Source of the DNA: an uncultured Bacteroidales bacterium
Lineage (GTDB): Bacteria; Bacteroidota; Bacteroidia; Bacteroidales; WCHB1-69
Reading direction: 5' to 3'
Length of the DNA stretch: 64,000 bases
Assembly: GCA_900316305.1 (NCBI GenBank)
Contig: ONCM01000011.1
Span: 1,863 to 65,862, forward strand
Shown piece by piece: positions 13,573 to 64,000 of this stretch. Both the position numbers and the translations under genes were made by a program. The notes beneath the pieces were generated by a model. That model did not search any database and was not told where the DNA came from. It worked only from the letters and a program-made list of their open reading frames with translations. Positions within the stretch are counted from its first letter, which is position 1, and every line of letters begins with the position of its first letter.

Positions 13573-13580
13573 CATTTTTT

Positions 13581-22089: not shown

Positions 22090-22192
22090 ACTATAAACCA
22101 TAAACCATAAACTATAAACCATAAACTATAAACCATAAACTGTAAACTGTAAACTGTAAACCTCAATAACCAATAACCAATAACCCATAACC
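22090..22192. repeat. Composite array TAAACYR x about 10 - CAATAAC x3, ending 9 nt before the fumC ATG
   Basis: ctataaaccataaaccataaactataaacc...ctgtaaacctcaataaccaataaccaataacccataacc. Confidence 0.9.
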
Positions 22193-31201: not shown

Positions 31202-31212
31202 TTTTATACTTT

Positions 31213-31331
31213 GGTTTAATGTTTATGGTTTAAGGTTTATGGTTTATGGTTTATGGTTTATGGTTTGACGGGGCCTTGGGAAAGACAACCTTAAACTCTC
31301 AACCTTAAACTCTCAACCTTAAACCTTAAAC
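31213..31331. repeat. Two-armed heptamer array inside the ribosomal block (rplW-rplB spacer)
   Basis: A GGTTTAT/GGTTTAA arm (31213-31266) and an AACCTTA/AACTCTC arm (31287-31331). GGTTTAAGGTTT and AAACCTTAAACC are exact complements. Confidence 0.9.
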
Positions 31332-34639: not shown

Positions 34640-34656
34640 ATACCTATATTATATAT

Positions 34657-34750
34657 TCATCGTCTTTCATCGTCTTTCATCGTCTTTCATCGTCTTTCAT
34701 CGCTTTTCATCGCTTTTCATCGTCTTTCATCGCTTTTCATCGTCTTTCAT
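34657..34750. repeat. Decamer array CATCGYYTTT x9-10 (reverse complement of the 2301 unit)
   Basis: In-phase units from 34661 to 34750. Lies upstream of the 34639 lipoprotein gene in that gene's orientation. Confidence 0.95.
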
Positions 34751-39082: not shown

Positions 39083-39110
39083 GCAGTTAGCAGTTAGTAG
39101 TTAGCAGTTA
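39083..39110. repeat. Heptamer array GCAGTTA x4
   Basis: Immediately after the stop at 39080-39082. The same unit recurs in the Rhs cassette leaders. Confidence 0.85.
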
Positions 39111-41939: not shown

Positions 41940-42064
41940 CCATTGACTATTGACTATTGACCATTGACTGCTGACTGTGTAACCATAAACCATAAACTGT
42001 AAACTATAAACTATAAACCTCAATAACCAATAACCAATAACCAATAACCTATAACCTATAACCA
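41933..42064. repeat. Composite array TTGACYA x6 - TAAACYR x6 - CAATAAC/CTATAAC x6 (long version)
   Basis: Starts on the receptor-like gene's stop codon and ends 4 nt before the nspC ATG. Uses the same junction strings (tgactgtgtaaccataaac; taaacctcaataacc) as 8926 and 22090. Confidence 0.95.
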
Positions 42065-42068
42065 AATA

Positions 42069-43306: not shown

Positions 43307-43708
43307 ATGGCATTTACATTGAAAATACGGGAAAACGGTTCGCAGCAGGAGGTTTTCGACCCCGTGCGGCAGAAGTGGGTCGTGATGACCCCCGAGGAGC
43401 GCGTGCGGCAGGTCTTCATCCTCTACCTGCTAAACGTCAAGGGATTGCCACTCTCGCACCTCTCGGTGGAGCACGCCGTGACCGTCAACGGAATGACCCA
43501 ACGTTACGACCTCGTGGTCTTCGACGACGCGCTGCAACCGTATATGGTGGTCGAGTGCAAGGCCCCGCACATAAAGCTCACGCAAAAGGTCGTGGAGCAG
43601 GCCGGCCGCTACAACAGCATCCTGAAGGCACCGCTGCTGTGCGTCACGAACGGGGTGGAACAGAGGATGTTTGAGATCGACTTTGAGGATAAGAGGATAA
43701 GAGGATAA
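43307..43708 (+). CDS. Type I restriction enzyme HsdR N-terminal domain-like small protein
   Basis: 133 aa, PEERVRQ...YDLVVF...MVVECKAP pattern (PD-(D/E)xK-like). Confidence 0.65.
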   Translation: MAFTLKIRENGSQQEVFDPVRQKWVVMTPEERVRQVFILYLLNVKGLPLSHLSVEHAVTVNGMTQRYDLVVFDDALQPYMVVECKAPHIKLTQKVVEQAGRYNSILKAPLLCVTNGVEQRMFEIDFEDKRIRG

Positions 43709-43851
43709 GAGAATTGGAGGATGAAAAAGCGATGAAGGGGCGATGAAAAGCGATGAAGGGGCGATGAAAGGACGATGAAAAAGCGATGAAAAGCGATGAA
43801 GGGGCGATGAAAGGACGATGAAAAAGCGATGAAAAAGCGATGAAGGACGAC
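43685..43851. repeat. GAGGATAA x3, then a decamer array GCGATGAARR x about 13 with a 40-nt super-period
   Basis: Contains the HsdR_N-like gene's stop codon and fills the convergent gap to paralogue A. Confidence 0.9.
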
Positions 43852-49131: not shown

Positions 49132-49190
49132 CCTAGGGCTCGCTCCCGCTCACCCTAGGCTGACATACGTCGGGCCTTCAGCCCTTTTGG
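49132..49190. repeat. REP-like double-hairpin element, copy 2 (inverted relative to copy 1)
   Basis: cctagggctcgctcccgctcaccctaggctgacatacgtcgggccttcagcccttttgg. It aligns to the reverse complement of copy 1 with a few differences. Confidence 0.75.
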
Positions 49191-50780: not shown

Positions 50781-50846
50781 ATTTCATCGTTCTTTCATCG
50801 TTCTTTCATCGTTCATTCATCGTTCATTCATCGCCCTTCATCGTCC
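50781..50846. repeat. Decamer-type array CATCGTTCWTT
   Basis: Lies between the acyl-CoA ligase stop and the cysS promoter region; abuts the stop at 50847. Confidence 0.85.
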
Positions 50847-52607: not shown

Positions 52608-52685
52608 AATCCTATTTTAGAATGAGGCGGCAAAGATACATAAAATGTGAATACATCGAATAGGCGTCCATCATCGTTAATCGGA

Positions 52686-52846
52686 TGGAGAAGGTGAACG
52701 TCCAGTTAGCAGTGAGCAGTGAGTAGTTAGCAGTTGGGCGGGAACCGTCATTGTTCTCTCCGTTAGGGGATGCATGGCAATAGCCAGGAACAGGACGGTG
52801 CGCGGGGGAAATCCATGGAAAGAGATTCTTCGGATGGTAATCGTCT
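52686..52846 (-). repeat. Terminal (truncated) cassette leader plus the first 12 nt of an Rhs core end
   Basis: Minus strand: ...CTGGCTATTGCCATGCATCCCCTAACGGAGA...CCAACTGCTAACTACTCACTGCTCACTGCTAACTGGACGTTCACCTTCTCC, then unrelated sequence. Confidence 0.7.
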
Positions 52847-53371
52847 TTAACGACCATATGTGATTTTGTTCTTCTTGTTCGTATAGAGTTTTGGATATAT
52901 GGCGTGAATTCTTTGGAAAGCCTTCTTGCGGTTGCCGAATCGTTTGTCATATTCGTATACCTTCACCCAAAGTCCTCCTGAATAATCAACGTAATAAACA
53001 GTCTTTTCGTTATTAAATGTCGTTATGTTTATGAGAACATTTCCGCTCATCAAAACTTCTTTCCACATGATGGATTTGAATTCATACGTCTTTTTTTTGG
53101 GGGGTCCTTCATACCATTCGGTATATGCCATTGTGATATATAAAGTTGCCGTATCCGGAAGCGTTTGCAATTCCTCATAAATAAGATCGTCTATTTTGAA
53201 ATGGCTTCTGAAATAGGGGAACGACAATGTGTCTCCAGGACGTGTCACACACGTGAAACCGATTGATTCAGGAAGTGTTCCGTCAACGACTACTATCGCA
53301 GGGACAATTTTTTGAGCCAACATCAAGTTGGACAGCACTAACAAAACGAAAAACAAAAATGTCTTTTTCAT
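52847..53371 (-). CDS. Putative immunity protein of cassette 1 (exported)
   Basis: Starts 9 nt after the stop of the toxin ORF. Signal peptide MKKTFLFFVLLVLSNLMLAQ. Function assigned by position only. Confidence 0.45.
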   Translation of the reverse strand: MKKTFLFFVLLVLSNLMLAQKIVPAIVVVDGTLPESIGFTCVTRPGDTLSFPYFRSHFKIDDLIYEELQTLPDTATLYITMAYTEWYEGPPKKKTYEFKSIMWKEVLMSGNVLINITTFNNEKTVYYVDYSGGLWVKVYEYDKRFGNRKKAFQRIHAIYPKLYTNKKNKITYGR

Positions 53372-53380
53372 ATTATCAAA

Positions 53381-54469
53381 TCAAAATCCGATTTTGATCT
53401 TTTTTAAATTATCAATGAGGATGCCCCCAATCATATTGCTGTTCGAATCATATACAACAGCCGTTCCCAATCTTTTTTCATACTTCACCCCTGTGGTGAA
53501 ATTGGGGATAGATTCATAACTATTTCCAACAATAACATTATAGGCATATTTTGAGAAAACGGATTTGTCCTTTTCAGATAATCTGTATGGTGTCTGAACA
53601 CAAGTCCCTGTACCATCAGGGCAACTGAAAGAATGTAATTTATGGGAGTGTATGGATAAATATCCTTTAGGATCGATTTCAATCTCTCCATCAGGAGTAC
53701 CAGTAGGATAAGTTTTGGGTAGTCCGCCAGAAAATGATGTGGCTTCTTCCCTGTCCCCACCATTGATGACCGTCCTATCATATACAGATATTATTGCTTC
53801 TATTTCAATAATATCCGTCTTCCAATCAACTGTCACCGCTGAACGGCTTGTCACCCTTTGTGCCTCATTATTTTTTGTTATGATATTGATACTTTCCTCA
53901 TCGGAAACAAAATAAACAGAAATGTCCTCTTTACCGTCTGTGCCCAAGAAATTTCCATTCCAATCTAAATACTGTCCTATCTCCTCCCCATTCGGATCCA
54001 CGCACCTCACCGGGTTGTTCGCGCAATAAACATACGGACTCAAAGAAGGATATTTGTCACTCATCGGGTCCACGCTCAACCAGACGCTGAGGTCGCTGCT
54101 GTAATACCGTGAGCCAAAGTAAGATAGACCCGTTTCGGAGTCCTTTTCTTTTGCGGAGAAGGTGAAAGTTCCGTCACGGTGTGGGTGTTGTCCGGGATTC
54201 CGCCACACGGTTGCGGTGTGCCGTGGCCGGGACTGGCCGGGGGTGTGGCGGAATGGCGGTGGGGTTGCCGGAGCGGATCCCTTGCCGGACAAGGCCTTGA
54301 AAGAACGGTTTTGCCGGTCCGCGGCGGGGGCCAAAGCCCGGAGGGAGGGCATCCCCCGTGACCACGCTGTCCTGGTTGGGACAACAGCCTGGCTGCCCGA
54401 AGCGTTTGCGGGCGCGGGCGAAATCCCCGAACGGGGATTCATCGCATGGTATGATTGGCGGCGGTTCAT
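53381..54469 (-). CDS. Cassette 1: Rhs core-end plus variable C-terminal toxin domain, fused in frame to a GC-rich Pro/Arg-rich leader with its own ATG
   Basis: FTFSAKEKDSETGLSYFGSRYYSSDLSVWLSVDPMSDKYPSLSPYVYCANNPVRCVDPNGEE is an RHS repeat-associated core end, followed by a unique about 215-aa tail. The conserved leader ATG at 54469 is in frame. Confidence 0.6.
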   Translation of the reverse strand: MNRRQSYHAMNPRSGISPAPANASGSQAVVPTRTAWSRGMPSLRALAPAADRQNRSFKALSGKGSAPATPPPFRHTPGQSRPRHTATVWRNPGQHPHRDGTFTFSAKEKDSETGLSYFGSRYYSSDLSVWLSVDPMSDKYPSLSPYVYCANNPVRCVDPNGEEIGQYLDWNGNFLGTDGKEDISVYFVSDEESINIITKNNEAQRVTSRSAVTVDWKTDIIEIEAIISVYDRTVINGGDREEATSFSGGLPKTYPTGTPDGEIEIDPKGYLSIHSHKLHSFSCPDGTGTCVQTPYRLSEKDKSVFSKYAYNVIVGNSYESIPNFTTGVKYEKRLGTAVVYDSNSNMIGGILIDNLKKIKIGF

Positions 54470-54510
54470 CGGCGGTTTTTTGACGGGGCGAAGATACGAT
54501 TTCTGAGAGT
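54167..54510 (-). repeat. GC-rich leader of cassette 1
   Basis: TATCTTCG box, ATGAACCGCCGCC, hairpin AATCCCCGTTCGGGGATT (54422-54439), and a 12-bp inverted repeat ATTCCGCCACAC/GTGTGGCGGAAT (54197-54208 / 54243-54254). Confidence 0.8.
54489..54496 (-). promoter_or_regulatory. Variant -7-like box TATCTTCG at the 5' end of the cassette-1 leader
   Basis: TCGTATCTTCGCCCCGTCAAAAA, 19 nt upstream of the leader ATG at 54469. The same string recurs at 59215 and 62977. Confidence 0.35.
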
Positions 54511-54559
54511 GATTATTTGTTCGGGATTTTGAATACAATTATAAAGGAAGACGATCCGG

Positions 54560-54784
54560 TCAAAAATGTCTGACATAAATAATAGCAGCCACCCACAATG
54601 CGCCTATGGCATAAAACCATAAATCACTAAGAATTTGAGACCAGCTTTGCTTCCCCATTCCTAAAAAATCATTATAATGGTGGACCAGCGTAAAAAACAA
54701 CAATGATGCAATAAACACTCCAATAAAAAAACATATTTTTTTTGTTTTTATTCTGCGAAGGCTGTTATTTTTTCTTTTTTCCAT
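54560..54784 (-). CDS. Putative immunity protein of cassette 2 (74 aa, two TM helices)
   Basis: Overlaps the toxin ORF end by 20 nt; has two hydrophobic helices. Assigned by position only. Confidence 0.4.
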   Translation of the reverse strand: MEKRKNNSLRRIKTKKICFFIGVFIASLLFFTLVHHYNDFLGMGKQSWSQILSDLWFYAIGALWVAAIIYVRHF

Positions 54785-55805
54785 TTTTCCATTTGTTTTT
54801 TGTTGTCATGAACCAAGAACGAATATTTAAGGCATAACCAACATCTTCAATAATGTCAGCCGCTTTCCTGACTACAGGTCCACCTGCTTCCTCAAATAGT
54901 TTAAGTGTTTTCCCAACCCCAAGTGTTGCCAAGTCTATTATTGCCCATTCTTTGTCTGATTTAGATGCTTTGTCTCCAAACATATTCTCTCCCTTGCCCA
55001 ATATCATGATATCATTTATTTGTGAAGTGATTGGCAATGCCGTGACCAAACCCTGACCAATAGCCACACCCTTTTGTGCTGCTTTCCTGTCAAAATCATC
55101 CAATTTCTCACGTCTTGTTCTCGGATCAAGGATAATTGGGGATTTAACCACTCCATCAGAAGATTGTCCAATCATAGGGATTGACGCGTCATCTTCCACA
55201 TATTGAGGTTTTGTATAACTGACATATTCTCGTTTGTTGTCAATGGAAAATTTCCCAGAAAACTTATCCCTTCTTGAATTCCTTTTGATAATTCCGCCAG
55301 TATGATGCTCTTTTCGGTATCGTCTTGCCTCCGCACGAGTGTCAAATTCACCATTGGGATCCACCATAATTATTGGGTTATTCCTGCAATAAGCGTATGG
55401 AGAAGTTGAGGCATATTTCGCTGCCATCGGGTCCACGCTCAGCCAGATGCTTAGGTCGGAGGAGTAATACCGTGAGCCAAAGTAACTTAAACCAGTTTCC
55501 AAGTCCTTTTCTTTTGCGGAGAAGGTGAAAGACAATGATGAATGATAAATGATGAATGATGAATAGTGACTGGGAGCATGCTGGCGGTTTTGTTGGAAAT
55601 TCCGCCACACGGTTGTGGTCGGCCGTGGCCGGGGATGGTTGGGAGTGTGGCGGAATGGTGGTGGGTAGGCAGTGAGTTGCGACCGTTCGCGCGCGCAGGC
55701 CGTAGGTCTGCAGGGCTTGGTGGCGGGGAAAAGGCACAACCGGTGGCGCGCGCCGGAGGTGTGCGGGCACGTGGAGAACAGGCGATATGTTCGGGTGACG
55801 GACAT
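54765..55805 (-). CDS. Cassette 2: leader plus Rhs core-end plus variable toxin domain
   Basis: The ATG at 55805 is in frame with FTFSAKEKDLETGLSYFGSRYYSSDLSIWLSVDPMAAKYASTSPYAYCRNNPIIMVDPNGE, followed by a unique basic tail. Confidence 0.6.
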   Translation of the reverse strand: MSVTRTYRLFSTCPHTSGARHRLCLFPATKPCRPTACARERSQLTAYPPPFRHTPNHPRPRPTTTVWRNFQQNRQHAPSHYSSFIIYHSSLSFTFSAKEKDLETGLSYFGSRYYSSDLSIWLSVDPMAAKYASTSPYAYCRNNPIIMVDPNGEFDTRAEARRYRKEHHTGGIIKRNSRRDKFSGKFSIDNKREYVSYTKPQYVEDDASIPMIGQSSDGVVKSPIILDPRTRREKLDDFDRKAAQKGVAIGQGLVTALPITSQINDIMILGKGENMFGDKASKSDKEWAIIDLATLGVGKTLKLFEEAGGPVVRKAADIIEDVGYALNIRSWFMTTKNKWKNGKKKK

Positions 55806-55837
55806 CAGATTTTGACAGGGTGGATGAATGAGATATC
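55530..55837 (-). repeat. GC-rich leader of cassette 2
   Basis: ATG at 55805. The same 12-bp inverted repeat ATTCCGCCACAC/GTGTGGCGGAAT (55599-55610 / 55645-55656). A CATTCAT heptamer array lies directly before FTFS. Confidence 0.8.
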
Positions 55838-56476
55838 TTATTTTATTATAGGATTTTCCATGACAGAATATGGATACCTATCAGACCATTTTAAAGCGAT
55901 AAAATTTCCACCATGATAAGCATAGACCGCTAAAAAAGGATCTATGTGAAGAAAGTATTCTATACCATCACAATAATACATTCCATCAATATAACGAGCT
56001 TCCTTGCCATCAATCGTCAATGTAAGATGTGGCAATAGAGTGTCCTCCCGAGATTTGATAACCGATAAATGTGCCATCCACGAGAGATCGTCGGGAAGTT
56101 GTTCCGTTTTGTTCGTTTTTTTCAAGAAAAGTCCATACGATTCACCAAATATATAACAGTCCCTTTTATTATAATACAAGTGACCCGTTAAAGGATTATC
56201 CGTGTATATGCCACCATAATTACAACATAATTCAGGAAGAAAAGTCTTTGGAGCATAACCGATATATGTAAAAGTCGTATCGTTTCTTTGAACGAAATTT
56301 ATCAGGAATATATAATCTTCTTTGGAATCTGAAATGTTAGAGGAAAGTATTTGTTTGAAACACTTGTTTTTAACACGAAGTTGTTGTAGTTTAACCTTGT
56401 TTTGTGAATCTACTTGCGCATCACAAATCAAAGGAATCAACAATAACAACAAATAGAATTTATATAACTTTTTCAT
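55838..56476 (-). CDS. Putative immunity protein of cassette 3 (exported)
   Basis: Signal peptide MKKLYKFYLLLLLIPLICDAQ. Starts 8 nt after the toxin stop if ATG 56476 is used. Confidence 0.45.
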   Translation of the reverse strand: MKKLYKFYLLLLLIPLICDAQVDSQNKVKLQQLRVKNKCFKQILSSNISDSKEDYIFLINFVQRNDTTFTYIGYAPKTFLPELCCNYGGIYTDNPLTGHLYYNKRDCYIFGESYGLFLKKTNKTEQLPDDLSWMAHLSVIKSREDTLLPHLTLTIDGKEARYIDGMYYCDGIEYFLHIDPFLAVYAYHGGNFIALKWSDRYPYSVMENPIIK

Positions 56477-56484
56477 TGATACAA

Positions 56485-57444
56485 TCATTTGAACCAAAGG
56501 CGATGAGTTGCTTGAAACAGATTGATTGACTTTTGAATATTCTTGGATATTTCATATCTGTAGTTTTGTTGGTCATCCGTCGAAACGTAACGGTGACGAA
56601 AAGCTTCATAGACTTTATATGTATTGGGATTATTTATCATCATAGGAATATCACAAGTTGGGCAAGGTTTACCATCCGGACCTCTGTAACTTAATTTATG
56701 TCTATAACTCCAATGACTGTGAATTTGGTATTTGACATTTTCGGGAGAACGGACTTGGTTGAAAACATCCTGATGAGATGTTCCAACAATGGTTTCTGTT
56801 TCACCAATATTCAATGCCCATTCAACATCAGTGTTTTCCGCTGCAAATTCGAAGAAATCGGTGGCAACGTTAGCATCATCAAATGACATGATATGTGTAA
56901 TGAAATCTATTTTTTTGCTAGGGTCATTTTTGTCTAGTATCAACTCTCCAGGATAGTTGTCAGAATTATGATTGATTGAACCCGCTTTATAATACCGACT
57001 AATTTCTTTCCCATTTTTATCTGTTGCATATACAATATCCACATCTGTTCTACCATTATCTCTTTTAGTCAAAGTTCCATCTCGTGCCAGATCCCACTCA
57101 TCCTCCCCATTCGGATCAACCACTTTTATAGGGTTATTGCTGCAATAAACATAGTTAGATTGATTTGGATATTTCCCCGCCATCGGGTCCACACTCAGCC
57201 ACACACTCAAATCGCTGTTGTAATACCGTGAGCCGAAGTAAGATAAGCCGGTTTCGGAGTCCTTTTCTTTGGCGGAGAAGGTGAAAGTCAGAGAGTTAGC
57301 AGTTAGCAGTGAGTAGTTAGCAGTTGGACGGAGGGAGGCAGAATAGTGTATCTCTGCGTATCGCGCATGTAGGCACGTATTTGTCCGCAGACAATCTGCG
57401 GAATTCTGCGGGATCAGTGGGCTATATGTGGAGGCGGCGGGCAT
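56485..57444 (-). CDS. Cassette 3: leader plus Rhs core-end plus variable toxin domain (contains an IHSH motif)
   Basis: The ATG at 57444 is in frame with LTFTFSAKEKDSETGLSYFGSRYYNSDLSVWLSVDPMAGKYPNQSNYVYCSNNPIKVVDPNGED, followed by a unique tail. Confidence 0.6.
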   Translation of the reverse strand: MPAASTYSPLIPQNSADCLRTNTCLHARYAEIHYSASLRPTANYSLLTANSLTFTFSAKEKDSETGLSYFGSRYYNSDLSVWLSVDPMAGKYPNQSNYVYCSNNPIKVVDPNGEDEWDLARDGTLTKRDNGRTDVDIVYATDKNGKEISRYYKAGSINHNSDNYPGELILDKNDPSKKIDFITHIMSFDDANVATDFFEFAAENTDVEWALNIGETETIVGTSHQDVFNQVRSPENVKYQIHSHWSYRHKLSYRGPDGKPCPTCDIPMMINNPNTYKVYEAFRHRYVSTDDQQNYRYEISKNIQKSINLFQATHRLWFK

Positions 57445-57475
57445 AGGATTTTGATGGGGCGATGAGAAGTTTTTA
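57286..57475 (-). repeat. GC-rich leader of cassette 3
   Basis: ATGCCCGCCGCC start. GCTAACT heptamers lie directly before FTFS. Confidence 0.75.
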
Positions 57476-57531
57476 TTAATTTGACGTTCACAATTCGGGG
57501 AATGTTCACAATTGGTATTGTTTCTCTATCA

Positions 57532-58113
57532 TTATTTTGTAGTATAAAAACGATCACATTTGATGATTTTGTTCGCTTTGTGTTTATTAATAGGTTTGTT
57601 GATTCGAATCGCAGAAGAAATGCAATCGTTTAACGCTGCTGTGTCTCTTTCGGATGCTTGAGCATATCCTACATATAAATGTTCAAATCCTCTATTGCTT
57701 ACTCCATATATATGATTTGGTTTTTCCAAGTTATAAAACAAATAATATCTCCAAAAAGTACTACCGTATCTTCCACTTTCATATAAAACACCTTCTATGG
57801 GTATATCAATTCTTTCTCCCATTTGTAAAAGGCACTGGGTTCTCAGAAGAAAGTTGTACAAAGTGTCCTGTGATTTATACGGGTATTCTTCACTAATGTA
57901 AAATACAGCGTCATGATAGGAGAACGTATAAGCATCGGAATGTCCACTTATAATGGTTTCAATTGTACTATTGAGTGGCAATTTCACCATATATGCAGGA
58001 GAGTCTTCCAATGGTTTGTATAAAAAAACTTTACAAAAATGCTTTTCTATTTTAAATGCACAACTTGCTGTTATCAGACACACTATGGAAAGCATAAGTT
58101 TACTTTTTTTCAT
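57532..58113 (-). CDS. Putative immunity lipoprotein of cassette 4
   Basis: Lipobox LITASC. Overlaps the toxin ORF end by 14 nt. Confidence 0.45.
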   Translation of the reverse strand: MKKSKLMLSIVCLITASCAFKIEKHFCKVFLYKPLEDSPAYMVKLPLNSTIETIISGHSDAYTFSYHDAVFYISEEYPYKSQDTLYNFLLRTQCLLQMGERIDIPIEGVLYESGRYGSTFWRYYLFYNLEKPNHIYGVSNRGFEHLYVGYAQASERDTAALNDCISSAIRINKPINKHKANKIIKCDRFYTTK

Positions 58114-59197
58114 AAGATTCTATATTAAAGGGCAAAAATGGACCTGTTTTATCATCGTTCAATAAGGAAGGACCTGTTCCTCCCAAATATTGCCCATCCT
58201 TACTCCATTTGACAATATAATGCGTTCTATATCCAAAGCCCAATTCTTTGCGTACAAGGTTTTCTCTATAACAAGCGACCCATTCATTTTTTTCGATTTT
58301 TTCATCAGATGTGCAATCTCTCCCAACTAAAGTGAAATCTCTCCAATTGTTATTGTCATCAAATGCATGGGATAGTTCATGCGCTAAATCGCAGGTGCCA
58401 TTATATTCTCCTAATGGATTTCCTTGTACAGGTAATCTTGTCCCATTTGGAGCCCATGTTATAGTGTTTTGTTCTTTTTTCTCATACCAACTTGTACCAG
58501 CTTTAATCGTATATTGAGTTCCTGAATTTTGTAAATCAGAAATCATACGATTCCCCTCCGTTGTCTTATTTATTTTGTCCAACGAATATTTAGCTTTATT
58601 AACAAAACGATTCTGTTGGCGCTCATTGAGAACAGCACCTTTTATGTGAGTTAAAGTACCATCTTTTTCATATCTATATTGAGAGCCTCGCCATTCAATT
58701 ACTATCTCTTCCCCATTCGGATCCACCAGTTTCACTGGGTTATCCGCGCAATAAACATACGGCGACAGCGACGCATATTTGTCACTCATCGGATCCACGC
58801 TCAACCAAATGGAGAGGTCGCTGCTGTAATACCGTGAGCCAAAGTAAGATAGACCGGTTTCGGAGTCCTTTTCTTTTGCGGAGAAGGTGAAAATCCAGTT
58901 AGCAGTCAGCAGTGAGTAGTTAGCAGTTGGGCGGAGAACAGTGGGATGCGTGGCAGTGATTCGGAGCGGCAGGCTTTCCCCGGTAGGGGATGAAGCGCGG
59001 TAGGACGGGGACACACCGCAGTCACCATGTCCCGCAGGGACAGAAGCTCGGTAGGAACCGGAAGCGGCGCGGGGTTTCCCAAGCCCCTTCAGGGGCGAGA
59101 CATGGCTCCGCGGATCGCGCGGATCACACGGATTTCCGCGAAGAGGGTCTGCGGGGAACGGCGGGAGCGGCGGGCGATATGTTCGGTGGCGGTTCAT
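58100..59197 (-). CDS. Cassette 4: leader plus Rhs core-end plus HExxH metallopeptidase-like toxin domain
   Basis: The ATG at 59197 (MNRHRTYRPP...) is in frame with FTFSAKEKDSETGLSYFGSRYYSSDLSIWLSVDPMSDKYASLSPYVYCADNPVKLVDPNGEE. The tail contains AHELSHAFD. Confidence 0.6.
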   Translation of the reverse strand: MNRHRTYRPPLPPFPADPLRGNPCDPRDPRSHVSPLKGLGKPRAASGSYRASVPAGHGDCGVSPSYRASSPTGESLPLRITATHPTVLRPTANYSLLTANWIFTFSAKEKDSETGLSYFGSRYYSSDLSIWLSVDPMSDKYASLSPYVYCADNPVKLVDPNGEEIVIEWRGSQYRYEKDGTLTHIKGAVLNERQQNRFVNKAKYSLDKINKTTEGNRMISDLQNSGTQYTIKAGTSWYEKKEQNTITWAPNGTRLPVQGNPLGEYNGTCDLAHELSHAFDDNNNWRDFTLVGRDCTSDEKIEKNEWVACYRENLVRKELGFGYRTHYIVKWSKDGQYLGGTGPSLLNDDKTGPFLPFNIESYEKK

Positions 59198-59230
59198 AGG
59201 CGTTTTTGACGGGGCGAAGATACGAAAAAA
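58892..59230 (-). repeat. GC-rich leader of cassette 4
   Basis: TATCTTCG box, ATGAACCGCCACC, block CGGAAATCCGTGTGATCCGCGCGATCCGCGGAG, hairpins GCCCCTGAAGGGGC and TCCCCTACCGGGGA, and GCTAACT heptamers. Confidence 0.8.
59215..59222 (-). promoter_or_regulatory. Variant -7-like box TATCTTCG at the 5' end of the cassette-4 leader
   Basis: 17 nt upstream of the leader ATG at 59197. Confidence 0.35.
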
Positions 59231-59317
59231 TTGGGGTTATATGAGTTGATGTGTTGTCCGAAATTCAGGGAAGATTATAATCCTTTGATAATAAAGATTA
59301 GTATCGCTACAGGAAAA

Positions 59318-59974
59318 TCACCATGCAATAGTCCAACAATATACACGATTCGTTGTGTTCTTGTCAAATGCGACTCCGCTATTATAACCATGTTTTATCC
59401 GGTCAGGCAATAAATCCCAGTTATATTCATAATCCTGAGGCAGAATAAAACCGTCTCCAAATTTCATCACACAAAAAACGATTGAATCTTGAGAAAACCG
59501 AGAATGTTTAGGGCCGTTTGAAAGAAAATCACAAATGTGCTTGAAATTGGGAATAAGATGCCCGCAGTCAGGTACGTTCTCAAAAAGTCTCTCCAACATG
59601 ATGGTGTCGTATTCAGATCTCAGCGATCGTTCATTGCTAAACGAGACAAACAAGCTGTCATTTTGGTTGACAACATATGTCGCAGATCGTAAGCATTGAT
59701 TTTGGAATCTTTGCATTTGATCGGAATCTTTGCATTGATACACCTTCCATCGGTACAATAGCTCAAATTCATCTGTAAAATAAGGGTATTGGCGATCAAC
59801 AACATTCCCTCCCATTCCAATCAATGTGAAATGTTTTATAGTATCAAATTCGTGAAAAACACTATCAGGAATAACGTAATCATTTTGAAAAAACGCACTT
59901 TTATGAATGTTTTGACACGATGCAAGACAAAAGACAAAATTCATTATTTGCAACATTAATACATATTTTCGCAT
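59318..59974 (-). CDS. Putative immunity lipoprotein of cassette 5
   Basis: MRKYVLMLQIMNFVFCLASC lipobox. The ATG at 59974 lies 4 nt after the toxin stop; the upstream part of the 316-aa track ORF is read-through of the toxin region in another frame. Confidence 0.45.
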   Translation of the reverse strand: MRKYVLMLQIMNFVFCLASCQNIHKSAFFQNDYVIPDSVFHEFDTIKHFTLIGMGGNVVDRQYPYFTDEFELLYRWKVYQCKDSDQMQRFQNQCLRSATYVVNQNDSLFVSFSNERSLRSEYDTIMLERLFENVPDCGHLIPNFKHICDFLSNGPKHSRFSQDSIVFCVMKFGDGFILPQDYEYNWDLLPDRIKHGYNSGVAFDKNTTNRVYCWTIAW

Positions 59975-59978
59975 AATC

Positions 59979-60746
59979 TTAAAACATTTTGGAAATAACT
60001 TTGAGAACTTCAACGAATACATCAGTGACTGATTGTTGTTTCGAAGACTTAGAGTAATCATACATGCGTCGCTCGGTCGCTGAGTTGATATGAGTGGCTG
60101 AAAAAAAATGAATATCGTCTTTGACGTTTTTTCGTGACAAGACAGTATATCTGCTTGACGAGTTTTTTTTAGCATATGTCCAAGAAAAGATTTTAACAGC
60201 ATATTCTGATGTTTCAGTATGCGAAAAAGAATTTGGCCCCATAGCATCAGGGAAAGATTGTGTAACACTTCTTACTTCAACATCTTGAACCAACGGTCTT
60301 TTTTCATAACCCATATTATTCATAAATGCTTCGGCATTATCACCCGTAAATGTTGCGTTCGCTATTCCATCAACACCATCTTGTCGGCATGATACATCAC
60401 TTACCTTATCCAAATTAGAATTAATGGCATCATTGTCGGATTTGTCGAACATATTATTACTACCCATCCATTTCCACCCTTTTCCCTCCAATGATTTTTC
60501 ATCTCCTTTTCGGTAATCTCGATTGTAATATACATCCCCCGTCAACTCATTTTCAAACCAGTCCTCCCCATTCGGATCCACCAGTTTCACTGGGTTATCC
60601 GCGCAATAAACATACGGGCTCAGCGAGGCATATTTGTCACTCATTGGATCCACGCTCAACCAAATACTCAAATCGCTGCTGTAATAGCGTGAGCCAAAGT
60701 AAGATAGACCGGTTTCGGAGTCCTTTTCTTTTGCGGAGAAGGTGAA
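59979..60746 (-). pseudogene. Cassette 5: Rhs core-end plus variable toxin domain, out of frame with its leader ATG (no usable ATG)
   Basis: FTFSAKEKDSETGLSYFGSRYYSSDLSIWLSVDPMSDKYASLSPYVYCADNPVKLVDPNGED plus a unique tail. The leader ATG at 60831 is in a different frame; the only in-frame start is a TTG inside the core end. Confidence 0.5.
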
Positions 60747-60858
60747 AATAGCCCGGAACGGTGGCGGGTTCGTCCCAAATCCCCGGAAGGGGATTCATCG
60801 GTCTCTGGCGATATGGGCGGTGGCGGGGCATTGGTGATTATATAATAGTGCAAAAGTA
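60747..60858 (-). repeat. Short leader of cassette 5
   Basis: TACTTTTG box, ATGCCCCGCCACC, hairpin AATCCCCTTCCGGGGATT (60778-60795), and CCGTTCCGGGCTAT. Confidence 0.75.
60851..60858 (-). promoter_or_regulatory. -7 box TACTTTTG at the 5' end of the cassette-5 leader
   Basis: 19 nt upstream of the leader ATG at 60831. Back to back with the + strand box at 60904-60911. Confidence 0.4.
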
Positions 60859-60903
60859 CAAAAATATCATATACAAAATCAATGCAACTTCAAGATTTTT
60901 TTA

Positions 60904-60911
60904 TACTTTTG
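60904..60911 (+). promoter_or_regulatory. -7 box TACTTTTG for the + strand gene pair inside the array
   Basis: 16 nt upstream of the ATG at 60928. Confidence 0.45.
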
Positions 60912-60927
60912 CAAAAATATTTGACTT

Positions 60928-61266
60928 ATGCAGATTCTTCGACAGAAAATCACAAGAGAGCATCTCAAAACATTGGCAGCCAACACATTCGTTGATATGA
61001 TCAAATGTGTCGCCGATGTTAAACAAAATCTGTTGGCTGTTGATGCTGAACTACATGCCGACCTTGAATCCATGTTGCTTGAAAATGGTTCTGAACAGGG
61101 TTGTCTTTGGGGATTTAACCTCTATCCTGACGAAACTGGCGATGATTTCATCGAATTCGATTCTCTTATCAACATCCGCTCTTGGCAAGGGAACCGCAGC
61201 AGAGACGTTGAAGACGAAAGTGTGCGTCAGCAAATCAGAGAAATTGTTTCCAAATACATTGAATAA
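60928..61266 (+). CDS. Small conserved hypothetical protein (DUF5674-like by recollection)
   Basis: 112 aa. Perfect TACTTTTG box 16 nt upstream. Opposite strand to the whole array. Confidence 0.45.
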   Translation: MQILRQKITREHLKTLAANTFVDMIKCVADVKQNLLAVDAELHADLESMLLENGSEQGCLWGFNLYPDETGDDFIEFDSLINIRSWQGNRSRDVEDESVRQQIREIVSKYIE

Positions 61267-61268
61267 CC

Positions 61269-61595
61269 ATGCAGCACGAAACCCTCAGCAACGGCGCTTG
61301 GGCCGATATGACGTTGGCCCAGCAAATGGCAAACATTGGAAGTGAAAGTTACCGTGCCACAAAATGGCTTGCTAAAGGCCGCAGTGACAACGCCGAACGT
61401 GCTTTTGAGCGTATGCAAGAGCTGGTGGACCTCACTATCGCTTACGGTCGACGCAATTCCCCAAATCGATATTCTCTTCTGAAAGAAATCTGTCGCTTCA
61501 GGGAACTTTTCTGCAAGGCATTCCTCGATTCCAATCTGACCGAACTTTCTGCACTCAACCATTATCTCGATCATTTTGCTAAGATCAGGGCATAG
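61269..61595 (+). CDS. Small helical hypothetical protein, translationally coupled to the preceding gene
   Basis: 108 aa. Starts 2 nt after the upstream stop. Confidence 0.4.
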   Translation: MQHETLSNGAWADMTLAQQMANIGSESYRATKWLAKGRSDNAERAFERMQELVDLTIAYGRRNSPNRYSLLKEICRFRELFCKAFLDSNLTELSALNHYLDHFAKIRA

Positions 61596-61800
61596 AGTTA
61601 CACAGATCTCATGCATTTGGATGCATAGCAATAGCCCGGGACGTTTGCGGGTTCGTTCCAAATCCCCGTGAGGGAATTCATGAATCTCCGCGTGTCACAC
61701 GTATCCACACGTATTAGGGCTGCGGAAATCTGCGAGGTCTGTGATATTTGATGGTGGCGGGCATAGCGGATTTTTGAGGGGGCAATGATGTGAAATTAAA
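61596..61800 (-). repeat. Leader copy not followed by an Rhs core end (precedes the inverted two-gene insert)
   Basis: ATGCCCGCCACC at 61764, hairpin AATTCCCTCACGGGGATT (61661-78), and CCCGGGCTATTGCTATGCATCC. Confidence 0.7.
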
Positions 61801-61810
61801 TAATACAATA

Positions 61811-62377
61811 TTATTCTAATCCTGTGAAATATTCTCGAGCAGTATAAAAGGCTTTTTTAGACTCCTTTTCCATGAAAACAAAGTGCCATCTTGCTGTTGG
61901 CTGAAGAAAAAACGTGGATTTCACCCCATTGTATGTTATTTCTACTTCACAACTCTCACTTTCGAATTCTCTCTTTTCGAAAACACAATACTCCGACCAA
62001 TTCCTGCTATTATAGATGCTTTTTATTCTGTTTTTAGAATAATAGACAACATAAAAGTCTTCAACCATCACCCCACTAATGCCTGCGAGTTGTATTTTGT
62101 CATCCATATTGTACACATGACGATCTAACAGAAGTTTATCCCCAACTTTTATAGATAACGTATCGTTCTCATTTATTCCAAAAATTGTAAGCACTGCATG
62201 TCTCTTTTTATACGGTTTGGCAAAATCCCAGATCTCATCAGTGGTTTGCCAATGCCTTGTTACATGCTTCGATGGGCTGGCGTAATTTATTGAATCTTGA
62301 CCTAAGGCAGTTAACGCATATATGGTTGACATAAATATGAATACAAGTGATTTAATCTGATTATTTGTCTTGCTCAT
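61811..62377 (-). CDS. Putative immunity protein of cassette 6 (exported)
   Basis: Signal peptide ...MSTIYALTALGQ. Starts 9 nt after the toxin stop. Confidence 0.45.
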   Translation of the reverse strand: MSKTNNQIKSLVFIFMSTIYALTALGQDSINYASPSKHVTRHWQTTDEIWDFAKPYKKRHAVLTIFGINENDTLSIKVGDKLLLDRHVYNMDDKIQLAGISGVMVEDFYVVYYSKNRIKSIYNSRNWSEYCVFEKREFESESCEVEITYNGVKSTFFLQPTARWHFVFMEKESKKAFYTAREYFTGLE

Positions 62378-62386
62378 AGCGATTTG

Positions 62387-62749
62387 TCAATGATGGTTGT
62401 GTCGATAGTTTTCAAAATAATGCTTCAAAATTTCATCTCTCATCCTCTCCATTTTTCTTTTACTGAACGGATGAGAGGATTTATTCACGATCTTTGCGGT
62501 AAAGTTAATGGTGATAATTTTATTCCCATTCTCATCGATTGTTATGACTATTTCTATCTCCTCCCCATCCGGATCCACCAACTTCACCGGGTTGTCTGCG
62601 CAATAAACGTAAGGCGAAAGCGAAGGATATTTCCCCGCCATCGGGTCGACGCTCAACCAAATGCTCAAATCGCTGCTGTAATAGCGTGAGCCAAAGTAAC
62701 TTAAGCCGGTTTCAACATCCTTCTCTTTTGCGGAGAACGTGTAAGACAA
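62387..62749 (-). CDS. Cassette 6: Rhs core-end plus short toxin tail, out of frame with its leader ATG (only a TTG start)
   Basis: (L)SYTFSAKEKDVETGLSYFGSRYYSSDLSIWLSVDPMAGKYPSLSPYVYCADNPVKLVDPDGEE plus a 55-aa tail. The leader ATG at 62958 is in another frame. Confidence 0.45.
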   Translation of the reverse strand: MSYTFSAKEKDVETGLSYFGSRYYSSDLSIWLSVDPMAGKYPSLSPYVYCADNPVKLVDPDGEEIEIVITIDENGNKIITINFTAKIVNKSSHPFSKRKMERMRDEILKHYFENYRHNHH

Positions 62750-62990
62750 ATGTAGAATGAAGAATGTAGAATGGCGGCGGGATACCCTTCCCCGTTAGGG
62801 GATGCATATCTGTAGCCCGGAACGGTTGCGCACGCGGGCCAAATCCCCGTGAGGGGATTCATGGATCTCCGCGGATCGCGCGAATCGCACGGATTTCCGA
62901 GAAGAGAATCTGCGGGGATATGCGCGGTCTGCGGGCGATATGTGAGGTGGCGGTTCATCGGTGGTTTTTGACGGAGCGAAGATACGAAAA
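62750..62990 (-). repeat. GC-rich leader of cassette 6
   Basis: TATCTTCG box, ATGAACCGCCACC, CGGAAATCCGTGCGATTCGCGCGATCCGCGGAG, hairpins AATCCCCTCACGGGGATT (62842-59) and TCCCCTAACGGGGA (62789-802), and TTCTACA/TTCTTCA heptamers. Confidence 0.8.
62977..62984 (-). promoter_or_regulatory. Variant -7-like box TATCTTCG at the 5' end of the cassette-6 leader
   Basis: 18 nt upstream of the leader ATG at 62958 and 7 nt after the stop of the YwqK-like gene. Confidence 0.35.
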
Positions 62991-63863
62991 TCACGAATCG
63001 GTTTTGGTACATTTCGTACCTCTGGCCTGTTTCATTCTCCATTTTCTTATGAAGCTATATGTACTCCAACCAAGAGCTTTCCGTTCGCCACGTTTCTGGT
63101 TTTTGAAAATCCGCCCCTTGGTGTCATAATAGACGGCGTTTGTCAGTTTGCCCGCCTGATAATAACGGATGCATTGGAGACCGTTGTAATGCTTTTTCGT
63201 ATAGAAGTCATATATAGTGTCTTTTACGCCATTTGTATATTTCGTTGTTGTCTCTAACATCCTTCGATGGTTGTAGAAGTTCTCTTTGTACAAGGTATTG
63301 TTTTTGTAGTATTGGACCAAACTGTCGGCCCAACAATAGGCGGAGTCTATTAGGGTGTCGTATTTCGCATAATACTTCCAAATGGGCTGGTTAAAGCCCA
63401 CGTAGGAAGTGTCATACTCGATTTTGTCCGAGAGATACCGGTCCGGATAGTTCAGATCCTCATCGCCATTCACGTAGAGGAGTCGTGTTAACAGTTCTCC
63501 ACCTGCGGAATAGCTTCTGACAACCCCGTCCGCAACACCTTGTTTGTAAGAGACCTCTCCACGCAACCGGCCGTCAGGCCAGTACTCTTTTGAAACGCCA
63601 TCTTCCAAACCTTCTTTGTAGCTGATGGTTTGAATGAGTTTACCCGTCTTGAAGTTGTAGCTGGTGTCTGATAGCTTATGCCCCATCTCATACACCGTCT
63701 TTTTCACCAGAACAGTATCGTTATCAACCTTCATGGAGATTACGAACCAGTTCCCGTGCGGCAATCCGCCCACAAGTTGGTTGTGCGCGTCATACAGACC
63801 GGTCACAGTTTGCCCAAACAACAAGGTTGGAAAGACCCCCAAAAGCAACAATAGTTTCTTCAT
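62991..63863 (-). CDS. YwqK-like (MORN-variant repeat) immunity/antitoxin family protein, exported
   Basis: Signal peptide MKKLLLLLGVFPTLLFGQ. Repeats of the G..DG....Y...G.L type (EGLEDGVSKEYWPDGRLRGEVSYKQGVADGVVRSYSAGGEL). Confidence 0.55.
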   Translation of the reverse strand: MKKLLLLLGVFPTLLFGQTVTGLYDAHNQLVGGLPHGNWFVISMKVDNDTVLVKKTVYEMGHKLSDTSYNFKTGKLIQTISYKEGLEDGVSKEYWPDGRLRGEVSYKQGVADGVVRSYSAGGELLTRLLYVNGDEDLNYPDRYLSDKIEYDTSYVGFNQPIWKYYAKYDTLIDSAYCWADSLVQYYKNNTLYKENFYNHRRMLETTTKYTNGVKDTIYDFYTKKHYNGLQCIRYYQAGKLTNAVYYDTKGRIFKNQKRGERKALGWSTYSFIRKWRMKQARGTKCTKTDS

Positions 63864-63889
63864 ATTCTGTCTGCTTTTCTCCAATCGAT

Positions 63890-64000
63890 TCATCTCTTGC
63901 GAACAATTTTTTTGCGAGAACGACAATTAGAAATCCTCAACTCAGGTCTTATAACCAATCTTCTTGATCGCATTGTTACAGAAAAACTCCAATTATCTTG
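63890..64000 (-). CDS. Possible 3' end of a further toxin ORF (cassette 7) running off the window
   Basis: The open frame from the window edge reads QDNWSFSVTMRSRRLVIRPELRISNCRSRKKIVRKR* and stops 27 nt upstream of the YwqK-like gene's ATG. The position is analogous to the other toxin ends. Confidence 0.3.
   Translation of the reverse strand, partial: QDNWSFSVTMRSRRLVIRPELRISNCRSRKKIVRKR

Follow-up and report, generated by a model that had tools for sequence, protein, structure and literature searches.

The window, a stretch of 64,000 nucleotides, carries on its minus strand (52,650-64,000) six cassettes made of an Rhs core end (the tip), a toxin and a putative immunity gene, with a GC-rich leader ahead of each. 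The host genome is that of a rumen-type Bacteroidales, and the array sits behind a giant Rhs toxin gene; this full-length SpvB/TcdB/Rhs gene lies ~3 kb past the window end. All features below are on the minus strand unless stated otherwise.

A sequence-only reading of this DNA had noted that the leader ATGs of cassettes 1-4 (54469, 55805, 57444 and 59197) open long frames, and we recovered the same ORFs of 362, 346, 319 and 365 aa, each of which starts at the leader ATG, crosses a Pro/Arg-rich region and continues into FTFSAKEKD and the toxin tail. The cassette 1 leader (54167..54496) bears a box, TATCTTCG, at 54496-54489 and an ATG at 54469, from which 303 nt (101 codons) lead in frame into the tip and toxin (53381..54166; 261-aa tail). 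The ORF as listed (53381..54538) begins at a TTG, and it is the in-frame ATG that gives the 362-aa product. The putative immunity gene (52847..53371; 174 aa, with a signal peptide) starts 9 nt past the toxin stop. The cassette 2 leader (55530..55805; 276 nt, 92 codons, in frame) includes a TCATCAT heptamer array at 55534-55564 and continues into a tip and toxin (54765..55529; entire ORF 54765..55805) whose 254-aa tail has no match in Pfam, and its putative immunity gene, encoding a 74-aa membrane protein (54560..54784), overlaps the toxin end by 20 nt. In cassette 3, a leader of 159 nt (57286..57444; 53 codons, in frame) with a GCTAACT heptamer array at 57294-57325 precedes a tip joined to a Toxin-JAB1 domain (56485..57285; entire ORF 56485..57444), and the putative immunity gene (55838..56497) overlaps or abuts the toxin stop. 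The cassette 4 leader (58892..59222) has box TATCTTCG at 59222-59215, ATG 59197 and 306 nt (102 codons) in frame, comprising hairpin modules and a GCTAACT-type heptamer array (58896-58928). Its ORF (58100..59197) begins with MNRHRTYRPPLPPFPADPLRGNP, the N-terminus quoted in the first reading, and carries a tip and a Peptidase_M91-like toxin with an intact HELSH motif (58100..58891); the putative immunity gene (57532..58113; 193 aa) starts inside the last 14 nt of the toxin.

In the remaining two cassettes the ATG is out of frame. Cassette 5 has a leader (60747..60858) with a box at 60858-60851 and ATG 60831, and is 85 nt long from that ATG. Because of an 80-nt leader deletion relative to L166, an otherwise identical contig in which this leader is 165 nt, in frame and part of a 310-aa ORF, the ATG is out of frame (+1) with the tip. 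The tip and toxin follow (59979..60746; 255-aa tail, no match in Pfam), and a putative immunity gene with a lipoprotein-like N-terminus (59318..59974) begins at ATG 59974, 3 nt past the toxin stop. The cassette 6 leader (62744..62984) contains box TATCTTCG (62984-62977), GC-rich hairpin modules, a CATTCTA heptamer array and an ATG (62958) shifted by +2 from the tip frame. Its tip (YTFSAKEKD...DPDGEE) and truncated toxin (62387..62743; 118-aa tail) have an internal deletion of ~400 nt relative to locus L003, and its putative immunity gene (61811..62377) encodes 188 aa with a signal-peptide-like N-terminus. Upstream, a MORN_2-repeat putative immunity gene (62991..63893) belongs to the next cassette, which is a 707-aa partial-core orphan, as seen in L166. 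Two plus-strand genes, encoding DUF5674 (112 aa) and a 108-aa ORF (60928..61595), are inserted into the array and have broken a further leader (61619..61790; ATG ~61764) inside a hairpin module; an intact version of this leader heads a JAB1-toxin cassette in L001. The array ends in a terminal leader remnant (52687..52850) of hairpin modules and a GCTAACT heptamer array, behind which the tip is reduced to its initial 12 nt (TTCACCTTCTCC, 52698-52687). The next feature is an acyl-CoA ligase-like gene with a TATCTTTG box at 52638-52631 and its ATG at 52607.

A TAnnTT(T/C)G box had been described ahead of the ATG in cassettes 1, 4, 5 and 6, at a distance of 17-19 nt and perfect in cassette 5 (TACTTTTG), and we find it there with spacings of 19, 17, 19 and 18 nt, respectively; no good box is present in cassettes 2 and 3, that of cassette 3 being degenerate. 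Across 82 leaders the box was present in 41, against a chance expectation of <1% of such positions, and it lay 16-21 nt upstream of an in-frame ATG in 39 leaders and 8 nt away in two more; about half of the leaders have no recognisable -7 box. Housekeeping genes of the window share this geometry, for example TATCTTTG 23 nt upstream of ATG 52607. The leaders lack the TTTG element that the Bacteroides promoter consensus has at -33; it occurs in only 2/40. No terminators were found between cassettes, and read-through from upstream may provide most transcription, making the box dispensable. In arrays without a full-length rhs gene within 10 kb, the first cassette has a 57-nt leader behind a good box. 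From this comparative conservation, and that of the ATG described below, we infer that the box fires and the ATG is used.

The first reading had named loss of frame and ATG among homologous leaders as what would speak against it; both are conserved. In a set of 48 non-identical homologous leaders with box and ATG from other Bacteroidales MAGs, the first ATG is in frame with the tip in 41, with in-frame stops in 0/41 (binomial p = 1.3e-13, with the caveat that leaders from related genomes do not count as wholly independent); if each length is counted once, 23 are in frame and 7 out of frame (p = 1.5e-6). Leaders with an ATG-N12-NNATAY motif are in frame in 56/63 cases. An independent metagenome sample, picked by the leader 5′ end alone, gave 46/47 in frame over 22 distinct lengths (135-474 nt), and one further tip variant, in L087, is likewise in frame. 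Combined, the in-frame sets span well over 30 different lengths, from 54 to 474 nt. An identical JAB1 toxin (100%) was found on four different leaders, every one of them open.

These frame statistics already contradict the view that the orphans are silent spare parts, with leaders of non-coding junk held open by GC-richness and cassettes that become active only once recombined onto the main rhs gene. Leader GC content (55-66%), an unconstrained leader amino-acid sequence, the movement of cassettes between orphan and main-gene positions and the classical view of Rhs/CdiA orphans all fit that account, which we nonetheless regard as extremely improbable. Besides conservation of the ATG over so many lengths, it is opposed by arrays that exist without a main rhs gene within 10 kb. 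The GC-richness by-product, an alternative raised in the first reading, fails because the other two frames hold ~4x more stops and because stops close off those terminal leaders that lack a tip (L025 and metagenome loci L094, L100, L120 and L101). Summed over leaders from the window and from its nearest relatives, stops number 2 in the tip frame and 23 and 35 in the other two. In a separate count over the last 150 nt ahead of the tip, there are 31 stops in the tip frame versus 126 and 120. Within GCTAACT-type heptamer arrays, the unit that would put TAA into the tip frame reads TCA instead, whereas an intergenic copy (39077-39110) has TAA in all three frames. Given their promoter-like boxes and start codons in the toxin's reading frame, the orphan cassettes are very probably translated, and more than a silent stock of spare parts.

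As the first reading had stated, the core end retained in the cassettes includes the DPxGE region: PxxxxDPxGE is present, and positions 13-75 of 76 of TIGR03696 (Rhs_assc_core) are matched. With few exceptions, the 62-residue core end retained is exactly the same from cassette to cassette. Tip and toxin are under strong purifying selection, with synonymous to non-synonymous single changes in the tip at 5.7 to 1 and a median dN/dS of 0.14 for toxin domains; this constraint on the toxins could reflect use after recombination onto the main gene and not the short products. The leader peptide, in contrast, is nearly unconstrained (pN/pS ~0.8; 102/101/87 substitutions across the three codon positions), so that a role for it in export or toxicity is unlikely, and reading through would be what is selected.

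Of 85 immunity starts, 46 overlap the toxin end and 26 more fall within 15 nt of it (72/85 together). We think it probable that the cassettes are autonomous bicistrons in which toxin and immunity gene are translationally coupled, and that each can still be swapped into the main rhs gene. A sub-variant of this explanation holds that ATG and open frame are kept for coupled immunity translation and polarity protection, with the short toxin irrelevant or tolerated. The close coupling, the free drift of the leader peptide and the lack of terminators between cassettes agree with this sub-variant, as do metagenome loci L123, L138 and L155, where the toxin has been deleted and an immunity-like gene is joined to the leader with almost nothing in between. 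Orphan immunity arrays are moreover known to be selected in Bacteroidales, as in the recombinase-associated rAID-1 arrays of gut Bacteroidales (Ross et al. 2019, 10.1101/471110; PMC12247911). Against it, toxin domains are intact and under purifying selection, including the HExxH motif of cassette 4, and a promoter and start placed directly at the immunity gene, the simpler route, is rarely taken. We hold the sub-variant to be possible, though on balance unlikely.

The leaders are also rich in hairpins, and a further explanation would make them primarily nucleic-acid elements, with the ORF secondary: either a structured 5′ RNA controlling expression or an attC-like site through which a nearby tyrosine recombinase would capture tip-toxin-immunity-leader cassettes. 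There are 145 perfect 6-bp hairpins, 3.4x the 42 +/- 10 seen in shuffles, with conserved stems and variable loops (ATCCCC-N4-GGGGAT occurs with 9 different loops), and a 12-bp inverted repeat (ATTCCGCCACAC...GTGTGGCGGAAT) in the cassette 2 leader recurs as the same module in that of cassette 1. Such hairpins could impede translation and may point to an extra role at the nucleic-acid level. Yet whole-leader folds barely beat shuffles (z -0.8 to -1.8), and the leaders have no Rfam match. Arrays terminate in a leader, and hence the repeating unit is tip-toxin-immunity-leader; strain differences have their edges at or beside the leader-tip junction, although homologous recombination between tips alone can give uniform cassette edges. 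At least 10 loci have a tyrosine recombinase in divergent orientation to the first cassette, and the repetitive intergenic sequences of rAID-1 arrays have been called integron-reminiscent. However, the window array and that of L166 are headed by the main rhs gene and not by a recombinase, in L020 and L025 rhs material has cut the recombinase gene itself short, and the recombinase's more distant relatives (~45% identity) are prophage integrases. Conservation of frame and ATG would also be left unexplained, and we judge a primarily nucleic-acid function improbable.

The bicistron explanation leaves room for exchange. One module is found on a full-length Rhs core in one strain and on a leader in another, so that the cassettes are real spare parts as well, and the two roles coexist. 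The original proposal of independently transcribed and translated short toxins rather than silent spare parts is supported by frame and ATG conservation, with the qualification that the spare-part role exists alongside.

In the bicistron we propose, which would not be a promoterless fragment, the leader would bring a -7 promoter box of Bacteroidetes type, with the sequence TAnnTTTG or, in many cases, the weaker TAnnTTCG. This would be followed by a short 5′ UTR rich in A, an ATG whose first few codons are weakly conserved (M-x4-T/P-Y-R/S-P), and an in-frame spacer of 18 to ~158 codons, built of GC-rich hairpin modules and a heptamer tandem repeat and free to drift in amino-acid sequence. Translation from the leader ATG would proceed through the last ~62 Rhs core residues (PxxxxDPxGE) into the toxin domain, and the immunity gene, overlapping or abutting the toxin stop, would be translated by coupling. 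Selection would retain an ATG in frame and the lack of stops, not the peptide, and the 186-nt conserved tip would still permit recombination of the cassette onto a full-length Rhs gene. The likely pay-offs are guaranteed immunity expression from every cassette and a cytoplasmic toxin-immunity pair that, toxin-antitoxin-like, would stabilise the array; we infer these pay-offs, and either may be the one that matters.

The closest precedent is found in Salmonella Typhimurium, where main and orphan Rhs toxins are expressed internally, the orphans from promoters and start codons within the gene, and function as type II toxin-antitoxin modules (Starsta et al. 2020, PMC7043789). [quoted passage not shown] In Salmonella, the promoter (P2) and a CTG start lie inside core-coding sequence common to main and orphan genes. 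The signals described here, in contrast, sit in a dedicated, non-homologous leader of variable length that the main gene lacks, they consist of an ATG and a Bacteroidetes-type -7 box, and expression is read from conservation across many genomes, not measured.

Classical Rhs/CdiA-CT orphans of Proteobacteria also form arrays of core end, toxin and immunity gene behind a full-length gene, with a conserved stretch for homologous recombination and comparative evidence of tip switching. Their core fragments vary in length, and initiation signals of their own are described as missing; the cassettes studied here differ in keeping the same 62-residue core end nearly throughout, each headed by a leader with box and ATG. 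The rAID-1 arrays resemble ours in their Bacteroidales hosts, in long co-oriented low-GC cassette arrays with repetitive GC-skewed intergenic sequences, in immunity genes kept in bulk, in shuffling between strains and in the tyrosine recombinase that adjoins some related arrays, but they are defined by a co-directional 5′ XerD-like recombinase and hold mostly immunity-only genes.

Intergenic TAACTGA heptamer direct repeats 5′ of start codons have been reported from five Bacteroidetes, with a suggested role in translation (MacGregor 2015, PMC4679880). The final leader module is similarly a heptamer array of 4-5 copies, often (C)TAACTG/TAACTAC; unlike those repeats, the arrays here use many different heptamers, are far denser and, in leaders, are read through as coding sequence with in-frame TAA removed. 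Similar heptamer arrays occupy most intergenic spacers of the window.

The array lies on the minus strand from ~52,650 to the end of the window. In each of its cassettes a GC-rich leader precedes a conserved Rhs tip of 186 nt (FTFSAKEKD...VDPNGEE), which continues into a variable toxin tail, and a small putative immunity gene is the last of the four parts. The tips, which start at 62743, 60746, 58891, 57285, 55529, and 54166 (minus strand), match TIGR03696 (Rhs_assc_core) over profile positions 13-75 of 76 (E = 1e-16 to 1e-18). Pfam toxin domains were recognized in two tails, Toxin-JAB1 in cassette 3 and Peptidase_M91 in cassette 4, and the remaining tails bear no relation to one another. In every cassette the toxin, intact or recently broken, is accompanied by its own putative immunity gene, the immunity function being assigned from gene position, one MORN_2 match excepted. 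The related sequence L166, 99.9-100% identical to the window, extends the picture: an SpvB/TcdB_toxin_midN/RHS gene of >3102 aa lies ~3 kb past the window end, and this full-length SpvB/TcdB/Rhs gene and its immunity gene come first, followed by a partial-core orphan of 707 aa and the window cassettes. A full-length rhs gene is absent within 10 kb of the related arrays in loci L020 and L025, and a main-gene head is thus not universal. All related sequences come from metagenome-assembled genomes (MAGs) of uncultured Bacteroidales from rumen and hindgut. The last element of the arrays is a leader without a tip, bearing box, ATG, modules, and heptamers (window 52687-52850, L025 16080-16190, L020 14620-14920, L094, L100, L120, and L101); in the window this remnant, read from 52850 to 52687 on the minus strand, has no more than the first 12 nt of a tip behind it. 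Since arrays terminate in a leader, the tiling unit is tip-toxin-immunity-leader.

A sequence-only reading of this region had proposed that many of the orphan cassettes, which lack a full Rhs core, may be self-expressed short toxins rather than silent spare parts. The features on which it rested are present. The leader ATGs at 54469, 55805, 57444, and 59197 in cassettes 1 to 4 open frames of 362, 346, 319, and 365 aa, respectively (peptide examples from leaders or leader-tip junctions are MNRHRTYRPPLPPFPADPLR... and ...LLTANWIFTFSAK), and these ATGs are exactly the starts in public gene calls of NCBI and ENA assemblies. A TAnnTT(T/C)G-type, -7-like box precedes the ATG by 17-19 nt in four cassettes: TATCTTCG in cassettes 1 (19 nt), 4 (17 nt), and 6 (18 nt), and TACTTTTG in cassette 5 (19 nt). 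The retained core end with its DPxGE region is recognizable both from the Rhs_assc_core match and from VDPNGEE or its variants, which are kept in 85 of 91 orphan tips.

Cassettes 5 and 6 have an ATG that is out of frame with the tip. For cassette 5 this is because 80 nt are absent at the leader-tip junction: L166 holds them (L166 13152-13231 vs window 60747-60749) and is otherwise 100% identical, giving a 165-nt leader that is in frame and an ORF of 310 aa. The missing stretch is flanked by two ATT triplets, and the window either lost it very recently or was assembled differently. The cassette 6 toxin has an internal deletion too, and this looks like a decaying cassette.

Open frames in GC-rich sequence could arise simply because stop codons are few, and we therefore asked whether ATG and frame are conserved in homologous leaders elsewhere. 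A scan with the tip peptide, taking one genome per species, yielded 74 loci and 82 non-identical orphan leaders. Here the ATG was assigned without regard to frame, as the first one 8-24 nt behind the box nearest the tip. In-frame ATGs were found in 41 of 48 cases (p = 1.3e-13), none of the 41 with an in-frame stop, and this set spans 23 distinct leader lengths from 54 to 306 nt; several of the seven out-of-frame cases arise artificially from the rule of taking the first ATG. In the same sample, the 150 nt immediately upstream of the tip hold 31 stops in the tip frame vs 126 and 120 in the other two frames. A second, independent sample came from a metagenome scan with a pattern built from the leader 5′ end alone, so that the tip played no part in ascertainment. 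It gave 90 unique starts, 47 of them with a tip within 700 nt, and 46 of these 47 were in frame over 22 distinct lengths (135-474 nt), as was one extra leader with a variant tip.

The tip-less terminal leaders serve as natural negative controls, and they run into stop codons, mostly in the heptamer array (L025 16080-16190; L094, L100, L120, and L101). Arrays of GCTAACT type before a tip offer a further view of the same pattern: the unit whose TAA is due in the tip frame carries TCA instead, and an intergenic copy at window 39077-39110 has TAA in all three frames. The frame-specific stop counts and the stop-closed terminal leaders contradict the reading of the open frames as a by-product of GC-richness. 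Together with the in-frame ATG counts and the TCA substitution, they indicate that the open frames are kept by selection and are not a side effect of base composition. The proposal of self-expressed orphan toxins is supported on the comparative test that this reading had itself suggested, with in-frame ATGs and stop-free frames, and we infer expression from the leaders on that sequence evidence.

Selection on the leader differs from that on the tip and toxin. In leader pairs 85-97% identical, the three codon positions take nearly equal shares of the substitutions (102/101/87), the ratio of synonymous to non-synonymous changes is 55:226, and pooled pN/pS is ~0.8; pairs at <86% identity by global alignment were unreliable and left out. 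Local frameshifts within leaders are offset farther on, as by gaps of -2, -5, -2, and +51 in one pair. Tips vary mainly at third positions, with 5.7 synonymous per non-synonymous single change, and toxin domains have a median dN/dS of 0.14. Conservation of the leader at the codon level is weak and limited to its start (M-x4-T/P-Y-R/S-P, the Tyr codon being both TAT and TAC). Codon-position bias, sought in leaders as a sign of a functional leader peptide, was not found. Because substitutions are even over codon positions, pN/pS is ~0.8, and conservation is limited to the first codons, the leader is best read as a read-through spacer and not a functional peptide; the unconstrained sequence argues against an earlier suggestion of a part for the peptide in export. 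The same JAB1 toxin (100% identical) stands behind four different leaders of ~50 to 87 codons, all of them open, which implies that leaders and toxins are reshuffled via crossovers in the tip. That an in-frame start is kept while the peptide drifts cleanly signals translation without function at the protein level, and the comparison behind it covers more than 100 cassettes of uncultured herbivore-gut Bacteroidales.

Transcription signals are less uniform. The primary-sigma promoter of Bacteroides has a -7 element TAnnTTTG and a -33 element TTTG. Among the 82 leaders, 39 have a box 16-21 nt upstream of the in-frame ATG and two more have one at 8 nt (chance expectation <1%), the perfect TAnnTTTG occurring in 26 and TAnnTTCG in 15 more; the stretch after the box is conserved and C-rich/A-rich. 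Housekeeping genes of the window show the same box geometry, for example TATCTTTG 23 nt before the ATG at 52607, and a box lies within 120 nt of 12 of 40 long window ORFs. At consensus spacing, a -33 TTTG was present in just 2 of 40 cases, with an A/T-rich stretch there instead, and half of the leaders are without a box. A sigma-70 promoter/terminator scan, its promoter half being uninformative for Bacteroidetes promoters, found no terminators between cassettes. As the -33 element is missing, half of the leaders are boxless, and inter-cassette terminators were not found, these data speak against a strong independent promoter, and read-through transcription probably contributes. Conservation of the start codon exceeds that of the promoter.

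Toxin and immunity genes are tightly spaced. The next ORF starts inside the last toxin codons in 46 of 85 cassettes and no more than 15 nt away in 26 more, so that 72 of 85 overlap or abut, and 20 of the 46 overlaps are of the 4-nt kind typical of ATGA. This has the layout of translational coupling, in which a broken leader frame would leave ~800 nt untranslated ahead of the immunity gene. We propose that each cassette probably acts as an autonomous bicistron: the leader would supply the promoter box, 5′ UTR, ATG, and a neutral in-frame spacer, and ribosomes would pass through the Rhs core end and toxin and then hand over to the immunity gene. Immunity would in this way be expressed from each cassette, and the cytoplasmic toxin-immunity pair would probably form an addiction module, by analogy with Salmonella Rhs orphans. 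The archive role is retained as well. Over 1813 nt, the main-gene tip, toxin, and immunity gene of locus L001 match a leader-headed orphan in locus L003 at 99.3% identity, with homology from the first tip codon, which is comparative evidence that an orphan can take the place of a main-gene tip through recombination within the core end that both share. If orphans are expressed as proposed, an array-bearing cell would make many toxin-immunity pairs simultaneously, with a bearing on array stabilization through addiction, the upkeep of broad immunity, and the counts of ‘complete’ toxins in gene finding and toxin surveys. The ATG-to-tip distance modulo 3 is a simple computational test that can be transferred to other polymorphic-toxin arrays.

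The usual view of orphan toxin modules that follow Rhs, CdiA, and similar genes is that they are silent archives. The array has the structure of classical Rhs orphans (core end, variable toxin, immunity, main gene, and tip exchange), but a ‘silent’ orphan in the classical sense is without its own promoter or start, whereas here an in-frame ATG is conserved and accompanied by a -7-like box. According to one experimental study, Salmonella Rhs orphans can be expressed from inside and behave as addiction modules (PMC7043789). The likeness is that an in-frame start upstream of PxxxxDPxG gives a short toxin, the use of the ATG being presumed in our case. In Salmonella, however, promoter and start lie within core sequence common to the main gene, while here the box and ATG lie in a dedicated leader without a main-gene counterpart, homology between main gene and orphan beginning exactly at FTFSAKEKD. 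The rAID-1 (recombinase-associated acquired interbacterial defence) arrays, known from gut Bacteroidales (10.1101/471110; PMC12247911), have a co-directional 5′ XerD-like tyrosine recombinase with at least 44% identity to BF9343_RS08045, chiefly orphan immunity genes, and conserved repetitive intergenic motifs. Our array resembles them in phylum, array form, and repetitive spacers (leader modules are repeated here), but it pairs toxins with immunity genes, the array of the window and L166 is headed by an rhs gene, and the recombinase of related loci is divergently oriented. In the literature searched we found no description of these leaders.

In integrons, an adjacent integrase recombines cassettes at attC-type imperfect palindromes in their 3′ ends, and several features of the leaders invite comparison with them. 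As well as donating promoter and start, the leader might serve rumen and hindgut Bacteroidales as the recombination site of an integron-like platform, on which a divergent tyrosine recombinase captures and shuffles tip-toxin-immunity-leader units. Arrays end in a leader. Leaders are module mosaics, rich in hairpins: perfect hairpins occur at 3.4x the level of dinucleotide shuffles, their stems conserved and loops variable, and leaders 1 and 2 have in common a module with a 12-bp perfect inverted repeat (window 54190-54250 and 55590-55650, minus strand; ATTCCGCCACAC-(~35 nt)-GTGTGGCGGAAT) that recurs in at least seven leaders of other genomes, nearly always in the same frame (...RHTP...TVWR). 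Whole-leader folds are marginally and not significantly better than shuffles (z -0.8 to -1.8), with no whole-leader palindrome. Strain differences have their edges at or beside the leader-tip junction, although homologous recombination between tips would also yield uniform cassette edges. A tyrosine recombinase (Phage_integrase, ~374 aa) is divergent from a first cassette with a 57-nt leader in at least 10 related loci, an integron-like layout; it usually lies ~230-340 nt away, and the first leader reads MNQ.IT... and has a good TAnnTTTG box. Full copies are at L030 1706-2827, L043 8578-9699, L077 962-2086, L034 6924-8045, and L084 7001-8128, and truncated ones at L020 8963-9715, L025 6035-6739, L044, L011, and L024. 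In L020 and L025 the recombinase is itself cut by rhs material at about codon 235-249, and the window array, headed by an rhs gene, has none. Homologues at ~45% identity are prophage integrases, and a link to rAID-1 through the recombinase was dropped; a 59% homologue is again beside a toxin array. Weighing these points, we regard this integron-like, dual-use reading of the leader as improbable; if it held, newly inserted cassettes would be expressed at once and in frame. We continue to favor the leader as a start donor and neutral spacer, exchanged through crossovers in the tip.

An intron-like or alternative-exon leader joining the main gene to tips was also considered and dropped: leaders match no Rfam family at gathering or permissive thresholds, and a conserved ATG with its box speaks for independent initiation.

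Some leaders (L113, L129, L136, L152, and L158) are enlarged by a GC-rich insert that has inverted repeats of its own (...GGATTCCGCCACC...GGCGGCGGAATGACG...), brings an in-frame stop, and may be a small mobile palindromic element. In the window, a DUF5674 gene and a 108-aa ORF (60928-61595, plus strand, opposite to the array) are inserted in a leader that is cut inside its hairpin module (61619); the insertion recurs in L003, L006, and L166-L168. At L123 12607, L138 1014, and L155 (minus strand, offset 3465 on the reverse complement), only ~150 nt of a truncated leader remains, joined through a short spacer to a small lipoprotein-like gene; tip and toxin are missing, and the arrangement looks like a leader driving an immunity-only cassette.

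Beyond the array, the sole above-gathering Rfam match in the window is an Acido-Lenti-1 RNA at 49132-49185 (plus strand; 40.2 bits, E = 1.2e-5), between two ORFs and unrelated to the cassettes. Nearly all intergenic spacers consist of short tandem repeats with many units, of period 7 (also 8, 10, and 11). Examples are 395-466, 2301-2402, 3803-3847, 5477-5617, 7954-8033, 10155-10225, 13579-13690, 14548-14669, 21939-22192, 31212-31331, 34656-34750, 41933-42065, 43685-43846, and 50782-50844, with units such as AAGAGCT x10, GTCAACA x9, ATAAACC x10, AATGATG x10, and CGATGAAAAA x10, among others. CAATAAC arrays lie directly 5′ of start codons in three cases (8964, 22164, and 42021), and the last leader module in cassettes is one such tandem array. 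The only description of spacer repeats found in the literature searched concerns TAACTGA repeats, which precede start codons in Beggiatoaceae, Cyanobacteria, and five Bacteroidetes (PMC4679880); the repeats of this genome are far denser and more varied. Spacers in the related MAG loci are likewise filled with repeats.
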